This document shows positions 1,532-17,063 of a stretch of 40,899 bases of DNA, in pieces (position 1 is the stretch's first letter; each line of letters opens with the position of its first letter). Source of the stretch: a virus (lineage: Duplodnaviria; Heunggongvirae; Uroviricota; Caudoviricetes). Where the stretch lies: the IMG/VR virus record IMGVR_UViG_2778261393_000006. One strand, written 5' to 3'. The notes beneath the pieces are model-generated. The model saw only the letters and a list, made by a program, of their open reading frames with translations, ran no database searches and had not been told where the DNA came from. The position numbers and the translations under genes are program-made.

Positions 1532-1741
1532 TTAATTTGAATATAATGCAATTCTCGAGGACTGAAGTTTCTCGCAATTAAAATTTATCAGTTTTACTTT
1601 CTGCTCTCTGGAAACGCCTGCTTCTTTTTTACCTGAGAGCATTTTTTCGCATTCTGATTTCGTTAGTTTAGATTTTGAATATCTTGTCCAGTTAGTAGGA
1701 GTGCCACCTTCCTTTTCAATAGTGGCGGTAATTTTATACAT
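1532..1741 (-). CDS. ydaC: Rac prophage small protein YdaC-like (DUF1187)
   Basis: ORF translation MYKITATIEKEGGTPTNWTRYSKSKLTKSECEK... matches YdaC from memory; start chosen at Met25 of the track ORF (alternative Met21 at 1753). Confidence 0.65.
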   Translation of the reverse strand: MYKITATIEKEGGTPTNWTRYSKSKLTKSECEKMLSGKKEAGVSREQKVKLINFNCEKLQSSRIALYSN

Positions 1742-8501: not shown

Positions 8502-8920
8502 AAATCAAGCATGAGCACATCGAGTCAGTGTTGTTAGCCCTGGCAGCCGAAAAAGGGCAGGCATGGGTAGCCAATGCCATTACTGAAGAATATCTGCGCC
8601 AGGGGGGCGGCGAATTGCCCCTGGTACCAGGCAAGGACTGGAATAATCAGCAGAACATCTATCACCGTTGGTTAAAAGGTGAAACGGAAGCGCAAAGGGA
8701 AAAAATTCAGAAACTGATCCCTGCAATTCTGGCAATCCTTCCGCGCGAGCTGCGTCACCGACTCTGCATCTTCGATACCCTGGAACGCCGTGCATTACTG
8801 GCGGCGCAGGAAGCGTTAAGTACGGCAATTGATGCGCATGATGATGCAGTCCAGGCCGTTTACCGGAAAGCGCATTTCAGCGGCGGCGGGTCTTCCGACG
8901 ATTCTGTCATTGTTCATTAA
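8498..8920 (+). CDS. ydaT: Rac prophage protein YdaT
   Basis: 140-aa ORF MKIKHEHIESVLLALAAEKGQAWVANAITEEYLRQGGGELPLVPGKDW... recognised as YdaT; start overlaps ydaS stop (ATGA), suggesting translational coupling. Confidence 0.8.
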   Translation: MKIKHEHIESVLLALAAEKGQAWVANAITEEYLRQGGGELPLVPGKDWNNQQNIYHRWLKGETEAQREKIQKLIPAILAILPRELRHRLCIFDTLERRALLAAQEALSTAIDAHDDAVQAVYRKAHFSGGGSSDDSVIVH

Positions 8921-8932
8921 GCAAAAGTTTCC

Positions 8933-9790
8933 ATGCTGTTTGTGCTTATTCTAAGCAACCGGGCAGCATCATACGGGGCAATTATGGCCGCATTACCATA
9001 CATGCAACTGTACATAGCTGATTACCTGGCTGACACCATGCATTTGTCAGCAGAGGAGCATGGTGCGTATTTGTTGCTGATGTTCAATTACTGGCAAACA
9101 GGAAAGCCAATACCTAAAAACAGGCTGGCAAAAATTGCCCGTCTGACTAACGAGCGATGGGCTGATGTTGAACCATCCTTGCAGGAGTTTTTTTGCGATA
9201 ACGGCGAGGAATGGGTGCATCTTCGGATTGAGGAAGATCTGGCATCAGTCAGGGAAAAATTAACCAAAAAATCAGCCGCAGGAAAAGCATCTGTTCAGGC
9301 CAGAAGAAGCAGAAAGGAAGCAGATGTTCAAACAAAACAAGAGAGAAATTTAACAGGTGTTCAAACAGATGTTGAAGTGGTGTTTGAACATGATGTCAAC
9401 ACAAAGGCAACTAATAAAGATACAGATAAAGATCTAAAAACAGATCCCCCCCTAAATCCCCCCCGGGGGAATCGAGGTGTCAAAAAGTTTGACCCTCTGG
9501 ATATTGCTTTGCCGAACTGGATTTCTGTCTCGCTTTGGCGTGAGTGGGTTGAATTTCGCCAGGCATTGCGAAAACCGATTCGAACGGAGCAGGGCGCTAA
9601 CGGGGCGATACGGGAGCTGGAAAAATTCCGCCAGCAGGGTTTTTCACCTGAGCAGGTGATTCGACACAGCATCGCCAATGAATACCAGGGCTTGTTCGCG
9701 CCGAAAGGTGTTCGACCTGAGACGTTACTCCGACAGGTTAACACCGTCTCGTTACCGGATAGTGCGATCCCGCCAGGCTTCAGGGGGTAA
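8933..9790 (+). CDS. ydaU: Replication initiator-like protein YdaU (DUF1376, lambda O analogue)
   Basis: 285-aa ORF recognised as YdaU; contains an internal iteron-like repeat cluster and a Pro/Asp-rich linker, as in O-type initiators. Confidence 0.8.
   Translation: MLFVLILSNRAASYGAIMAALPYMQLYIADYLADTMHLSAEEHGAYLLLMFNYWQTGKPIPKNRLAKIARLTNERWADVEPSLQEFFCDNGEEWVHLRIEEDLASVREKLTKKSAAGKASVQARRSRKEADVQTKQERNLTGVQTDVEVVFEHDVNTKATNKDTDKDLKTDPPLNPPRGNRGVKKFDPLDIALPNWISVSLWREWVEFRQALRKPIRTEQGANGAIRELEKFRQQGFSPEQVIRHSIANEYQGLFAPKGVRPETLLRQVNTVSLPDSAIPPGFRG
9323..9394. repeat. Iteron-like repeats (candidate replication origin) inside ydaU
   Basis: TGTTCAAACA at about 9325-9334 and 9358-9367 (direct, 33 bp apart) and inverted TGTTTGAACA at about 9381-9390, followed by an A-rich stretch (aactaataaagatacagataaagatc). 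Confidence 0.4.
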
Positions 9791-12520: not shown

Positions 12521-13715
<1,195 letters not shown>

Positions 13716-13750: not shown

Positions 13751-14524
13751 TTAGAACTGTTCATTGCCATCGAGGTTAGGTAGCATAATTTTTTCAATCA
13801 AGGCGAGAGCCTTTTTGTCCCGGTCAGCGAAGTATTTCGGGGCATATTGCGGCAACCAAATATTGTTAAAATGTTCTTTGAAATCTGCTAAATATTCATT
13901 TGGGTACAGCCTTGCAGGGTATACGCGACCATCGGGATATTCATGGTCATAGGTAGGGAATGTTTTGGGTTCTACGTTTCTATTATCTCTTAACCATTGT
14001 GAAAATACTCTTCCTTGTGAAATGTCAGGAACCATTTTTTCTGGGAGTGTGTACCCTGCTTGTTCAAGAGGTGCAACCAAGTTGAATGTCAGTTCATTAA
14101 GAATAGAAAAGTGCGTGTGAGGAATTCTACTACGATTAACCATGTACCGTTTTAAATGTACAGGCATTTCTGCTGTAGTTCTTTCCCCTGACATCCATTC
14201 ACGAACCCATCTTGAAACCTGGACTGCAAATTTGGGCGATAGCCACTGCGCTAGATTAATAGCGATGTCAGGATGCACCCATGTCCCTTGGTTTTCAGGT
14301 CTTCCACCTTTAAATGATTGAATTAACTCCGATATGGGAATTCCCATATCGCGTGATAATTCGTCAAAAAACTCTTGAGTAGTTTTGAGTCTAGTGTAAT
14401 CAGAGAGCAGTTTGCCCGCAGTTCTACACATTGATGTGGCGTTTATGTAACCATCTTTGGCACGTAAATGTATTATTTCGCCGTCAATTTCACGAGAAAT
14501 CAAAGATAATTGAAAGGATGTCAT
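13751..14524 (-). CDS. KilA-N domain protein
   Basis: 257-aa ORF; N-terminal region (INATSMCRTAGKLLSDYTRLKTTQEFFDELS...GTWVHPDIAINLAQWLSPKF) fits the KilA-N/APSES DNA-binding domain pattern; GAGGAA upstream of ATG. Confidence 0.65.
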   Translation of the reverse strand: MTSFQLSLISREIDGEIIHLRAKDGYINATSMCRTAGKLLSDYTRLKTTQEFFDELSRDMGIPISELIQSFKGGRPENQGTWVHPDIAINLAQWLSPKFAVQVSRWVREWMSGERTTAEMPVHLKRYMVNRSRIPHTHFSILNELTFNLVAPLEQAGYTLPEKMVPDISQGRVFSQWLRDNRNVEPKTFPTYDHEYPDGRVYPARLYPNEYLADFKEHFNNIWLPQYAPKYFADRDKKALALIEKIMLPNLDGNEQF

Positions 14525-15046
14525 TGAAAATTCCTCAAGTTGGAGAGTTCTGGAACATTAAGGCGAGGTGGCAGTAATGCACCATCTGTAATCTTTTGAT
14601 ACTGACGTAATCGGACCTGATGTGCAACGCCTTGCAAGTATGTAACTCATTGAAAACGATCATTTTTATCTATTGACATCAAATGGCAAACTGTCATTGT
14701 GCGGCTATGGCAAGTGGCAAATGCTTATAAATCATATGGATATAAATAGTACAGAAAGAGTTGTTTTCTCTAGGATATGAGTATACGCCCAATGCTGATT
14801 GGTTGAATTTTGTTCTTGTTTTAAAGGGTAAGAGTTTAAAGTGTTGGCAGTGATGTATTGGATAGTTAGAATTGCTGTGGGTGCTTGAGGCTATCTGCCT
14901 CGGGCATGAACACCAAAGGTAGATAGAGAAAAGCCCCAGTTAACATTACGCGTCCTGCAAGACGTTTAACATTAATCTGAGGCCATATCTATGCGACACA
15001 TAGAGATTAGCCTCTTACGGACCGAAAGGTCAAGGAGAAGCAGGCT

Positions 15047-15172
15047 ATGAAGCAGCAAAAGGCGATGTTAATCGCCCTGATCGTCATCTGTTTAACCGTC
15101 ATAGTGACGGCACTGGTAACGAGGAAAGACCTCTGCGAGGTACGAATCCGAACTGGCAGACGGAGGCTCTGA
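15047..15172 (+). CDS. Hok-family type I toxin homologue, C-terminally truncated/divergent (possibly decayed)
   Basis: Hand translation MKQQKAMLIALIVICLTVIVTALVTRKDLCEVRIRTGRRRL (41 aa); first 37 residues match my memory of HokD/RelF, then the frame diverges and stops early; upstream leader resembles hok mRNA 5' elements; coordinates approximate. Confidence 0.5.
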   Translation: MKQQKAMLIALIVICLTVIVTALVTRKDLCEVRIRTGRRRL

Positions 15173-15254
15173 TTCGTAGACTACTAATCTGAGTAAAAGA
15201 CCCAGCGGGGAAAGAACCACGCCGGGACTAGTTAATAAGATATTTATAGCGTGG

Positions 15255-15596
15255 CTATTCTTTTTTTGCGGTATAGACTTTTTCGCCTGAGAAGTCTGGA
15301 GCTACCCAAAAGTTAATATTAAACTGAGCATCATCGCTTAGTTCAACACGGTGCCAGTATTGTGGTGGGCTTGTTGCAAAAGCGCCAGCATTAATGACTA
15401 CTTTTATCTCCGGTTCAGTAGCATTCTCATCAGCAAAACCATAATATGTTACAGTACCTTCCATCACGCATAACTGTCCAAAAACACCTGCTGCTGTATT
15501 ATGATGTGTTAATAACGCTGAAGGTACGTTCTCTTTTGTGAAGAACGGAGTTGAGCGTTTGATTACCCAGTCTTTAGGAATTCTCTTGTGTGTCAT
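15255..15596 (-). CDS. DUF1971 family protein (YeaR/TehB C-terminal-like)
   Basis: 113-aa product (start at internal ATG preceded by GGGAGGTGG); motif KRSTPFFTKENVPSAL...GAFATSPPQYWHRVE...FNINFWVAPDF resembles YeaR family from memory. Confidence 0.55.
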   Translation of the reverse strand: MTHKRIPKDWVIKRSTPFFTKENVPSALLTHHNTAAGVFGQLCVMEGTVTYYGFADENATEPEIKVVINAGAFATSPPQYWHRVELSDDAQFNINFWVAPDFSGEKVYTAKKE

Positions 15597-16463
15597 AACC
15601 ACCTCCCATAAAACATGCATTATAAATGCACCTTTTTGAGGGTTATGTCAAGCTGTTATGAAACACATAATTGATATGTTGATTAGAGGAGAAGATAGAA
15701 TCAATATGGTTGTTTTTCGTATAACTATTTGTTTTACTTTTAGTTTGTGCATTCTGTGTGTTAGGAATAACTTATTAAAGTTTAACTAAAAAATCTCGAT
15801 ATAGTCCGCATAGATTACTGTTACTGAATCTTATTGTGTGCATTAGTTGTGTTCTGAAATTTCAATTTAATTACTTATGATATATTTTTAACGATAAATG
15901 TTTTCCGGGTGAAAGACAGTGGGGGATGAGATAAGCAATATATCATTAATCTTGATTATTTCCAGGATGCCTTTACTGTGCATATAAATAAATCATATAC
16001 GCATCAAATAATGTAAAGGCATCCTTTTAGATATATCTTATCAAATGTTAATGATTTGAGTGGGAAACATGATTCCAGAAACTAATCATGCGGCTACTTT
16101 ATAAAAATAATGCCCATATAAAACAGCCAGCGAAAAGGATTACGGATAAAAAAGGAGCGAGATGTGCATAGTTGTTATTTTCCATGTTTAACCACCTTAA
16201 ATAATTGATGATGACGGGATGTGCATCTGTAATGCTTTTGTTGAAATGTTATGATAAAAAAGAACTTTTTCATAACATTAAAATGTAATTTATCTAATCG
16301 TTTTTAATAATAAGTGTTGTATTTCTATCCTTGTATCAGCTATTTGATATGTAGTGTTTGTTCATGTTATGTGGAGCTTTACACCATAGCCAGTTTATTT
16401 ATACTTTATTCGTCAGCCTGAACAACTGGCATCTGCTGCACTGCGCCATCGAGAGATTGAGAA

Positions 16464-17063
16464 ATGGCGCATATACAACTGGTCAAACAAACCTCTTCTG
16501 GACTACTTCTCCCGGCGACGCCGGAGAGTTGCGATTTTTTGCATCAAATCAAAATAGGCGAGTGGATACACGCAGACTTTAAGCGTGTGCGTAACTACGC
16601 ATTCCACAAGCGTTTTTTCAAACTCCTGCAACTGGGATTCGATTACTGGACTCCGGTCGGTGGGGCGATCACGCCTCGCGAACGAAAGCTGGTTTCAGGA
16701 TTCGTTGATTACCTATGTGAATCAGTAGGCCGGGAACATACGCCAGCTCTGAGCGAAGCCGCAGAGCAATATCTGAATACAGTTGCGACACGCAGAACCC
16801 GGGATACGGCATTGCTAAAGTCGTTTGAGGCTTTCCGCGAGTGGGTAACCATTCAGGCCGGATTTTACACCGAGCATCTTTATCCTGATGGTAGCCATGG
16901 GCGTCGGGCGAAATCCATCGCTTTTGCGAATATGGACGAAACCGAGTTTCAGCAGGTTTATAAATCTGTTCTGAATGTGCTGTGGAACTGGATTCTGTTC
17001 CGTAAATTTTCCTCTCCGGAACAAGTCGAAAATGTGACCGCGCAGCTGCTGGAGTTTGCGTAA
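16464..17063 (+). CDS. Phage nin-region protein (DUF1367-like), function unknown
   Basis: 199-aa ORF directly upstream of a YbcO-like gene and Q; family name from memory, not verified. Confidence 0.5.
   Translation: MAHIQLVKQTSSGLLLPATPESCDFLHQIKIGEWIHADFKRVRNYAFHKRFFKLLQLGFDYWTPVGGAITPRERKLVSGFVDYLCESVGREHTPALSEAAEQYLNTVATRRTRDTALLKSFEAFREWVTIQAGFYTEHLYPDGSHGRRAKSIAFANMDETEFQQVYKSVLNVLWNWILFRKFSSPEQVENVTAQLLEFA

Follow-up and report, generated by a model that had tools for sequence, protein, structure and literature searches.

An AT-rich gap in a Rac-type Escherichia coli prophage appears to join two accessory cassettes, one with a predicted NsrR operator and one with a probable, unannotated 28-codon gene

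RESULTS

A long unannotated gap beside a DUF1971 gene

We analyzed a stretch of viral DNA of 40,899 nucleotides (nt) (IMG/VR record IMGVR_UViG_2778261393_000006; Caudoviricetes), referred to here in its full length as the window, which corresponds to a Rac-type lambdoid prophage of Escherichia coli at the ttcA integration site. Our subject is a minus-strand cargo gene with a DUF1971 domain and the 867 base pairs (bp) upstream of its start codon (15597-16463), hereafter the gap, within which RefSeq annotates nothing and in which we identified a predicted operator for the nitric oxide (NO) sensor NsrR and a very probable gene of 28 codons. The genes run in the order KilA-N (13751-14524, minus strand), hok/sok, the DUF1971 gene (minus strand), the gap, and DUF1367-YbcO (DUF1364)-DUF1133 (plus strand), with DUF1367 being the first gene of the late-regulator operon DUF1367-YbcO-DUF1133 (Q-like antiterminator). 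Over the region of interest, the window is 99.9 to 100% identical to a prophage in NZ_CP033884. Coordinates are collected in Table 1.

In the annotated twin prophage, the gap is the largest unannotated stretch, followed by stretches of 527, 523, and 442 bp. Its G+C content is 0.28, 0.33, and 0.34 in three 300-bp windows, compared with approximately 0.41 to 0.52 for most of the window and approximately 47% overall. The initial annotation, made from the sequence alone, had reported a 113-amino-acid (aa) DUF1971-family gene on the minus strand, preceded by AT-rich DNA of a length unusual for a compact phage genome, and both observations hold. Its further statement, that no open reading frame (ORF) of 60 codons or more occurs there, is correct for ORFs lying fully within the gap, the longest of which has 43 aa (15658-15789, plus strand), but a 74-aa ORF with a TTG start (16358-16582, plus strand) begins in the gap and enters the DUF1367 gene out of frame. 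Searches of Rfam 15, with gathering scores across the whole window and in E-value mode across 14500-16800, returned only chance-level matches in the gap (E > 1).

The cargo gene belongs to the STM1808-type subfamily

The DUF1971 ORF spans 15255-15620 (121 aa). The annotation places its start at the ATG at 15596, which is also the start with the best support and yields a protein of 113 aa; orthologues have lengths of 111 to 114 aa. The match to PF09313 covers profile positions 1-80 of 80 (E = 3e-26; 91.6 bits, with a cut-off of 23.1), and the closest solved structure is PDB 3DL3 (E = 2.6e-59). The protein is 79 to 81% identical to the dsbB-adjacent proteins of Salmonella and Klebsiella, and 75 to 81% identical to the wider DUF1971 subfamily of Salmonella, Klebsiella, Raoultella, Vibrio, Aliivibrio, and Photobacterium. 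Its identity to YeaR of E. coli K-12 is 44%. Being closer to the dsbB- and norVW-linked proteins than to YeaR, it falls in what we call the STM1808-type subfamily. An assignment as the YeaR orthologue was considered and rejected, given this 44% identity and the lack of yoaG (DUF1869) downstream, where the next feature is the hok locus. The DUF1971 assignment made initially is right.

Gene neighborhoods place this subfamily in a functional context. The Salmonella and Klebsiella orthologues sit after nhaB-dsbB, and by gene order, the nhaB-dsbB-linked gene is taken to be the STM1808 locus. STM1808 is reported to belong to the NsrR regulon and to have a role in virulence (Karlinsey 2012, as cited in PMC7527575). 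In Vibrio parahaemolyticus and Aliivibrio fischeri (loci L160/L161 and L158, respectively; 76 to 80% identity), the orthologue lies directly after norV-norW, the genes for the flavorubredoxin NO reductase, and in L160, it is also near a gene for a hemerythrin (ytfE-like). The norVW neighborhood strongly suggests that this DUF1971 subfamily is connected with the detoxification of NO. The early view of a host-type stress gene carried as cargo is thus sustained and can be sharpened to an STM1808-type gene for NO stress, under predicted NsrR control.

A predicted NsrR operator covers the likely −10 element

The evidence for that control comes from a position weight matrix built from 27 published 11-1-11 sites of E. 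coli CFT073 (Table 4 in PMC5320621). The best site, immediately upstream of the DUF1971 gene, scores 26.5 bits, which is above 26 of the 27 training sites and second only to ytfE; the next best site anywhere in the window scores 12.1 bits. None of 1,000 shuffles of the AT-rich gap reached 26.5 bits (shuffle maximum, 20.1). Relative to the ytfE site itself (AAGATGCATTTAAAATGCATCTT), the operator has three mismatches, and 0.01 matches of this quality are expected by chance in the window. Prophage copies that have diverged retain it, with scores of 25.6 bits (L154) and 20.6 bits (L004), and the chromosomal orthologues have comparable sites 26 to 28 nt before the ATG (25.5 bits in Salmonella and 29.7 bits in Klebsiella).

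The operator lies 15 nt before the start codon, and the TATAAT (the reverse complement of 15619-15624) lies 22 nt before the ATG. Because the TATAAT is within the predicted operator, a bound repressor would cover the −10 element. For NarL heptamers at this promoter, inspection by eye found partial matches only. Host NsrR would occlude the DUF1971 promoter, and the destruction of its iron-sulfur cluster by NO would derepress the gene. The DUF1971 gene is, on this sequence-based reasoning, most likely an NO-derepressed moron, and we consider it probable that lysogens would make extra STM1808-type protein when NO inactivates NsrR.

Two independently distributed cassettes meet within the gap

To describe its distribution, the gap was compared by sensitive BLAST with 5,426 complete E. 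coli genomes, and the matches fell into three classes. In 463 genomes, the match extends over the whole gap (identity of at least 87%); the part from 16098 to 16463 (query positions 502-867) is present alone, at approximately 75% identity, in approximately 700 more; and the last 49 nt of the gap are present alone in other genomes. The right-hand module, 16098-16463, therefore occurs in a total of roughly 1,100 to 1,200 of the 5,426 genomes, or about one in five. In a marker scan of IMG/VR and E. coli loci, 130 loci bore the marker; a few of these were chance matches, and most of the rest could be classified by their neighbors. On its left, the module is joined by hok, DUF1971, IteAS defense genes, or others, and on its right, by DUF1367-YbcO(-DUF1133) or by a 92-aa protein (hyp92) followed by DUF968-RusA-Q, with nearly all of the left and right combinations occurring among the classified loci. 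In the genomes that have 16098-16463 alone, the left neighbor is an intact hokD or IteA/IteS rather than DUF1971.

Together, the BLAST classes and neighbor combinations indicate that 15226-16097 (the DUF1971 gene with approximately 500 bp) is one cassette and that 16098-16463 is a second. The DUF1971 cassette starts just past the hok 3′ region, and the conserved module starts exactly at the stop codon of the 28-codon ORF. The gap, which had been treated as a single unit, is by these classes and alignments the meeting point, at approximately 16098, of two unrelated modules. Conservation across related prophages had been proposed initially as a check on the region, and the result is positive for 16098-16463, which is kept at approximately 75% identity amid differing flanks.

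Other cargo is found in the same position. The IteA/IteS antiphage pair (an ATPase and an S8 peptidase) occupies this slot immediately to the left of the module in L002 and L005, and in an O157 locus (L007), the slot holds an ATP-binding protein and an O-methyltransferase. The slot appears to be a hotspot for defense and stress cargo.

The right-hand module contains a conserved 28-codon reading frame

The minus-strand ORF at the left end of the module has several properties of a coding gene. Of the 130 marker hits, 125 have it intact, always with 28 codons, and the other five are chance matches or are cut at the end of a locus. Among its 18 distinct DNA versions, there are 5, 9, and 17 variable sites at the first, second, and third codon positions, respectively, and the ratio of nonsynonymous to synonymous substitution rates (dN/dS, NG86) is 0.21. 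A Shine-Dalgarno sequence stands 6 nt before the ATG and reads AAGGTGA or AAGGTGG in most variants and AAAGTGA in one class. A constantly open frame, a start codon with a Shine-Dalgarno sequence, and an excess of synonymous change are thus all present, and we regard the ORF as very probably a real coding gene.

An alternative is that 16098-16463 serves purely in the transcriptional control of the late-regulator operon, through nin-type terminators, a promoter, and operators, and that the ORF is accidental. Such control elements are indeed suggested by the module: in L005, terminator-like hairpins cluster on the plus strand, with four in 570 bp, where 0.6 are expected; a TTTACA-16-TATACT promoter-like site and the 5′ untranslated region behind it are kept despite differing downstream genes; and terminators upstream of Q are established in the nin region of lambda, which provides a precedent. 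An accidental ORF is at odds with its pattern of change. Between the most diverged pair of versions, L003 and L143, there are 15 nucleotide differences (2, 2, and 11 by codon position) that result in four conservative amino-acid changes, and random substitutions do as well in 0.015% of trials (P = 0.00015). The ORF is also free of indels and constant in length, although both of its flanks carry indels; its start codon and Shine-Dalgarno sequence are conserved, while the remaining frames are closed by stop codons in most or all of the 18 versions; and L143 retains the ORF and the block upstream of it, although the promoter side has been replaced. We therefore judge a purely regulatory module to be unlikely and prefer the reading in which the ORF is a gene.

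The first 10 residues of the predicted peptide form a polar N terminus and the last 18 a hydrophobic segment (mean hydropathy of residues 11-28, 2.3 to 2.7), and the peptide would insert in the inner membrane. Searches of Pfam, NCBIfam, PHROGs, and PADLOC gave only chance-level hydrophobic matches, none of six peptide variants had an exact match in a set of 15 billion predicted proteins, and a full-text literature search for substrings of the peptide found no occurrence. No RefSeq or phage record that we examined annotates the gene, which can be explained by its length, as the usual gene-caller minimum is 90 nt and the ORF, at 87 nt with its stop codon, falls 3 nt below this. The Qin prophage of K-12 (hokD-rem-ydfU) has no homologue of the module, and K-12 lacks the small gene. 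A species scan with an ORF-derived pattern yielded real matches outside E. coli only in Shigella flexneri and Escherichia ruysiae, the rest being mostly chance matches in AT-rich genomes. The gene would thus add a new, unannotated member to the small hydrophobic proteins of bacteria.

This gene also accounts for a feature reported earlier, namely a plus-strand mini-ORF (16162-16191) with an AAAGGAG Shine-Dalgarno motif, which was proposed to be a leader peptide or small protein. The mini-ORF is present in the window, with its ATG and its GGAG motif well spaced, but it is not conserved in frame, length, or Shine-Dalgarno sequence across relatives. It is antisense to codons 1-8 of the 28-codon gene: its ATG complements the His-8 codon, and its AAAGGAG is the reverse complement of the codons for Ala-Pro-Phe, which becomes AAAGGAAC, without the GGAG, where the peptide has Val. 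Its own product, MCIVVIFHV in the window's version and MYRFVVFHIYSP in that of the commoner class, changes radically among variants (including Ile to Arg), and has 9 or 12 aa as the stop shifts. The minus-strand frame accounts for all of the conservation here, so that a coding role for the mini-ORF is scarcely credible. More generally, a Shine-Dalgarno-like motif in AT-rich DNA can be a mere antisense image of codons.

Hairpins and promoter-like sites upstream of the small gene

Between the 28-codon ORF and DUF1367 lie three proposed hairpins, P1 to P3, and a pair of promoter-like sites. The palindrome P1 is unique in the window (0 expected by chance; z of approximately −4 on both strands). 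The 8-bp core is paired in each of the 26 aligned variants. Other self-complementary sequences have taken the place of the inner stem, and the P1 half-sites, when considered as a repeated operator, do not recur beyond chance elsewhere in the window. At the position of P3, the stems differ wholly in three lineages (AACCC/GGGTT, GCAT/ATGC, and ATTCC/GGAAT), and under relaxed criteria (a stem of at least 4 pairs, including at least 2 G-C pairs), a plus-strand hairpin followed by a T-tract is found in 43 of 70 variants, compared with 0 of 70 on the minus strand. In L005, the terminator scan scores P3 as terminator-like. The most conserved noncoding block, which contains P2, is kept even in the divergent L143, where everything rightward differs. 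Across the module, the proposed stem pairs are 83.7% paired, compared with 30 to 41% with slid partners, and six pairs have double changes. RNAalifold gave weak consensus energies on both strands, and the asymmetry between G-U and A-C mismatches favors the minus strand for the P1 core and the plus strand for P2, being roughly equal for the P1 inner stem and P3. As with the window's version, an Rfam search with the commoner variant of the module found no family.

Of 70 variants, 69 have the plus-strand TTTACA-16-TATACT site, among them loci in which another module follows, and 67 have a minus-strand TTGTTC-16-TATAAA, which stands face to face with it. The latter is a candidate promoter of the small gene, for which it would provide a leader of approximately 200 nt. 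The 28-codon gene is accordingly predicted to be transcribed divergently from the late-regulator operon, with conserved hairpins upstream, and the small membrane peptide would be translated from a structured mRNA of the module's own. Past the plus-strand site, the first 30 to 40 nt (ACGTCAGCCTGAACAACTGGCATCTGCTGC; 16405-16440 here and 3790-3836 in L003) are kept where the downstream genes are hyp92-DUF968-RusA-Q, which suggests that this conserved 5′ leader, or the minus-strand −35 that overlaps it, has a function.

Terminators also lie on the other side of the gene, with the commoner classes having a GC-rich terminator 15 to 25 nt past its stop codon, which in the IteS class is bidirectional and 15 bp long. 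The plus-strand hairpins probably terminate transcription that arrives from the left, so that expression of the Q operon would require either its own promoter or antitermination, in the manner of the nin terminators of lambda.

Alternatively, or additionally, the plus-strand hairpins may end a cis-antisense RNA over the small ORF, forming a pair that resembles a type I toxin-antitoxin system. This more specific version of the gene reading, which is compatible with it, holds that the 28-aa peptide is a membrane toxin and that an antisense RNA of approximately 115 nt, running from a promoter-like TTKAYT-17-TATAAA beside the stop codon of the ORF to P3 and its T-tract, blocks translation of the mRNA or destabilizes it. 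In its favor, the peptide has a fitting size (28 aa, with type I toxins being below approximately 60 aa) and hydrophobicity, it shares its slot with hok/sok and its prophage with ralR/ralA, its leader is structured upstream of the Shine-Dalgarno sequence, the antisense promoter-like site is found in 53 of 70 variants, and the hairpin with T-tract is confined to the plus strand, with unrelated stems in the three lineages. Against it, the −10 of the antisense site is forced by the codons Phe-Leu-stop and its −35 lies within the T-tract of the neighboring terminator, so that the site may be incidental; the peptide resembles no known toxin family in the protein databases searched above, and apart from the neighboring sok, there is no Rfam match; and it is nearly without charged residues, which most known type I toxins have. 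As size and hydrophobicity agree while homology to known families fails, we have not filed the gene as a type I toxin. We view both the toxin assignment and the antisense RNA as possible but doubtful.

The cassette-specific spacer

The AT-rich spacer between the NsrR operator and the right-hand module occurs solely with the DUF1971 gene. In three lineages, it aligns with 88 to 94% identity, including a 54-nt deletion in one (L004), and the changes within its ORFs are scattered and mostly nonsynonymous. The 43-aa ORF at 15658-15789, which one phage record annotates, was rejected as a gene, as its changes are mostly nonsynonymous and its stop codon is lost in L004. The spacer has no Rfam match, and in a plasmid search, homology to the cassette was limited to the coding sequence, with none for the spacer. 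We interpret it as gene-free, either an insulator or silenced foreign DNA.

Its most prominent feature is a strong hairpin, which folds with −22.7 kcal/mol on the plus strand and −28.1 kcal/mol on the minus strand (z of −5.1 and −6.1, respectively) and whose arms are partly conserved in L154 and L004. It may insulate the two cassettes from each other, terminate transcription between them, or form the 3′ end of a plus-strand RNA. A promoter-like CTGAAA-16-TATGAT (9 of 12 matches; 15854-15881, plus strand) lies approximately 140 nt before it, and a small plus-strand RNA could run from there to the hairpin at 16025. The 5′ part of this possible RNA (15854-16030) is removed by the deletion in L004.

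It might be supposed that everything beyond the DUF1971 promoter is similarly inert, representing AT-rich foreign DNA, an H-NS-silenced spacer, or gene remnants. The base composition of 28 to 34% G+C, the lack of an Rfam family or long ORF, and the scattered changes and lineage-specific 54-nt deletion in the left 460 bp are what such DNA would be expected to exhibit. This account is applicable at most to 15635-16097, as the right 365 bp are retained at approximately 75% identity across different flanks in around one in five complete E. coli genomes and have both a coding signature and structure-preserving replacements. As an explanation of the gap, it is very unlikely, and a composite of two cassettes is preferred.

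Neighboring features

The left border of the slot is a hok/sok locus in which the hok frame has a 1-nt deletion and is probably a pseudogene; this neighbor of the cargo resembles a type I toxin-antitoxin system in decay. The RalA antitoxin RNA of the ralR/ralA type I system is found at 1557-1735 (plus strand; Rfam, 225 bits), and with the decayed hok/sok counted, the prophage has at least two type I loci. At the right border, a literature search for DUF1367 in connection with antitermination found nothing relevant. Compared with the otherwise near-identical NZ_CP033884 prophage, the window has an additional IS5 (12521-13715, with a 338-aa transposase ORF at 12667-13683, minus strand) beside the KilA-N gene. 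Near the ydaT and replication genes, 8918-9533 does not align with that prophage, which is 98 to 99.9% identical otherwise, and looks like a local module exchange.

Table 1. Features in and around the gap, with positions in the window
Feature	Position	Strand	Basis and remarks
sok / hok mRNA leader	14879-15049	+	Rfam RF01794, gathering-score match, 101.5 bits; left neighbor of the cargo slot
hok reading frame	15047-15172	+	1-nt deletion with frameshift, 41 aa (…RTGRRRL*) versus approximately 51 aa; alignment with the intact hokD locus L008
DUF1971 cargo gene	15255-15596	−	113 aa; STM1808 / TehB-like cupin type; Pfam PF09313
Shine-Dalgarno sequence of the DUF1971 gene, GGAGGTGG	15601-15608	−	Read from the sequence
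Predicted NsrR operator, AAGGTGCATTTATAATGCATGTT	15612-15634	−	Position weight matrix; 23-bp 11-1-11 inverted repeat; contains a perfect −10 TATAAT
AT-rich spacer	15635-16097		BLAST classes
Strong hairpin (inverted repeat I8)	15964-16025		13-bp perfect arms, 36-nt loop, TTTT after it on the plus strand
Predicted 28-codon gene, MENNNYAHLAPFLSVILFAGCFIWALFL plus stop	16099-16185	−	Unannotated; constant length, dN/dS of approximately 0.21, Shine-Dalgarno sequence
Mini-ORF MCIVVIFHV	16162-16191	+	Antisense shadow of the 28-codon gene
Shine-Dalgarno sequence of the 28-codon gene, AAGGTGG	16192-16198	−	
Hairpin P3, GCAT-CTGTA-ATGC then TTTTGTT	16224-16243	+	Window's version
Hairpin/palindrome P1, AATGTTATG-N17-CATAACATT	16245-16279		Between the small ORF and the conserved upstream block
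Most conserved noncoding block, CATAACATTAAAATKTAATTT...CGYTTTTAATAATAAG	16270-16318		Alignments; holds hairpin P2 and a minus-strand TATTAT
Promoter-like TTTACA-16-TATACT	16378-16405	+	10 of 12 matches; 58 nt before the DUF1367 start codon
Divergent promoter-like TTGTTC-16-TATAAA	16398-16425	−	Consensus match only
DUF1367 (NinB/Orf-like) gene	16464-17063	+	Pfam, PHROG 319, annotation; right border of the slot

DISCUSSION

What was first reported as AT-rich noncoding DNA is, from sequence analysis, more informative. The whole is best explained, in our view with some confidence though well short of certainty, as a mosaic of two independent accessory cassettes, an NsrR-controlled DUF1971 moron and a small-gene module, each with the mechanism proposed above, that lie in a cargo slot between hok/sok and the late-regulator operon. 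Such a slot would collect accessory cassettes. The expectation that the gap holds regulatory DNA or a small protein is supported in kind, by the predicted NsrR operator and the 28-codon gene, if not through the mini-ORF that was put forward.

Several observations pull in the other direction. At the DUF1971 promoter, the sole good −35 element (a perfect TTGACA, 15651-15646) lies, in each of the three variants, at a distance of 21 bp from the −10, which is too long for a normal sigma-70 promoter, with the NsrR site filling the spacer and the −10. For the small gene, the 18 distinct ORF sequences represent about three lineages, all from Escherichia or Shigella, and with the diversity of the module so limited, the coding statistics rest on few independent events. 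The promoters are consensus matches in AT-rich DNA, where a scan counts no more of them than in shuffled sequence; the antisense TTKAYT-17-TATAAA site is missing in the window's own variant, which counts against the type I reading as well; and the window's terminator-like hairpins are weaker than those of other variants, with the terminator scan finding none in the gap and one match at 16515-16532, inside the DUF1367 gene. Finally, the covariation leaves undecided which RNA strand is functional, or whether the palindromes act as DNA sites.

If the two-cassette interpretation is correct, an NO-defense gene is present as a second copy, together with a predicted site for the host's own NO sensor, in a prophage that extraintestinal and animal E. 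coli commonly carry. A moron would in this way be wired into a host stress regulon, which predicts an altered response of lysogens to host-derived NO. For the second cassette, about a fifth of complete E. coli genomes would carry a small gene beside the late-gene regulators of many otherwise different prophages, and its fixed position in such diverse prophages suggests a role in phage or lysogen biology. A far-reaching version of this idea is that the gene and an opposite-strand RNA constitute a new family of type I-like switches at the border of the cargo slot and the Q operon in Rac/Gifsy-type prophages, with divergent, overlapping promoters and antisense terminators that couple expression of the peptide to read-through into Q, and with the peptide acting in the lysis-lysogeny decision or in abortive infection instead of being mere cargo. 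We offer this as a speculation that is fairly unlikely to hold in full.

The cargo gene represents a known class and a known regulatory logic in a new location. It shares with STM1808 and the dsbB-adjacent orthologues of Klebsiella and Raoultella the same domain, 79 to 81% identity over the full length, and a high-scoring 11-1-11 NsrR operator just before the start codon and over the likely −10. Unlike these orthologues, it lies in a prophage cargo slot rather than next to dsbB, its operator is 15 nt rather than 26 to 28 nt from the ATG, and its flanking DNA is unrelated, with the coding sequence alone matching in plasmid and chromosome searches. With yeaR-yoaG of K-12, which is repressed by NsrR and activated by nitrate through NarL, it has in common the DUF1971 domain and a promoter region with an NsrR site (for yeaR, AAATGGTATTTAAAATGCAAATT, to which the matrix used here gives 23.7 bits), but it lacks the yoaG partner, and the greater closeness of its product to 3DL3 than to the YeaR structure 3BB6 reflects, along with the low identity to YeaR, a different subfamily.

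The 28-codon gene resembles the small inner-membrane proteins of E. coli that were found by ribosome profiling (for example, Ynf of the Qin prophage) in its size, its single hydrophobic helix, and its having been missed by gene callers. In contrast to them, it is absent from K-12, hence outside those studies, and its product is predicted from sequence. Relative to type I systems such as hok/sok, ibs/sib, shoB/ohsC, zorO/orzO, and tisB/istR, it likewise has a short, unannotated, hydrophobic ORF (below 30 codons) whose leader is structured, it may be paired with a cis-antisense RNA unit, and it lies in a prophage beside hok/sok, but its almost uncharged peptide has no sequence similarity to Hok, Ldr, Ibs, TisB, ShoB, or Zor, and both its antisense RNA and its toxicity are putative. 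Considered together, the two cassettes resemble the morons of lambdoid phages, which are accessory genes that bring a promoter and terminator with them and are inserted between conserved operons, as the cassettes lie between the early or replication genes and the Q operon, are present independently of their neighbors, deviate in base composition, and have what are predicted to be control signals of their own. The small-ORF module differs in being far more constant than typical cargo and behaves as part of the upstream region of the Q operon.

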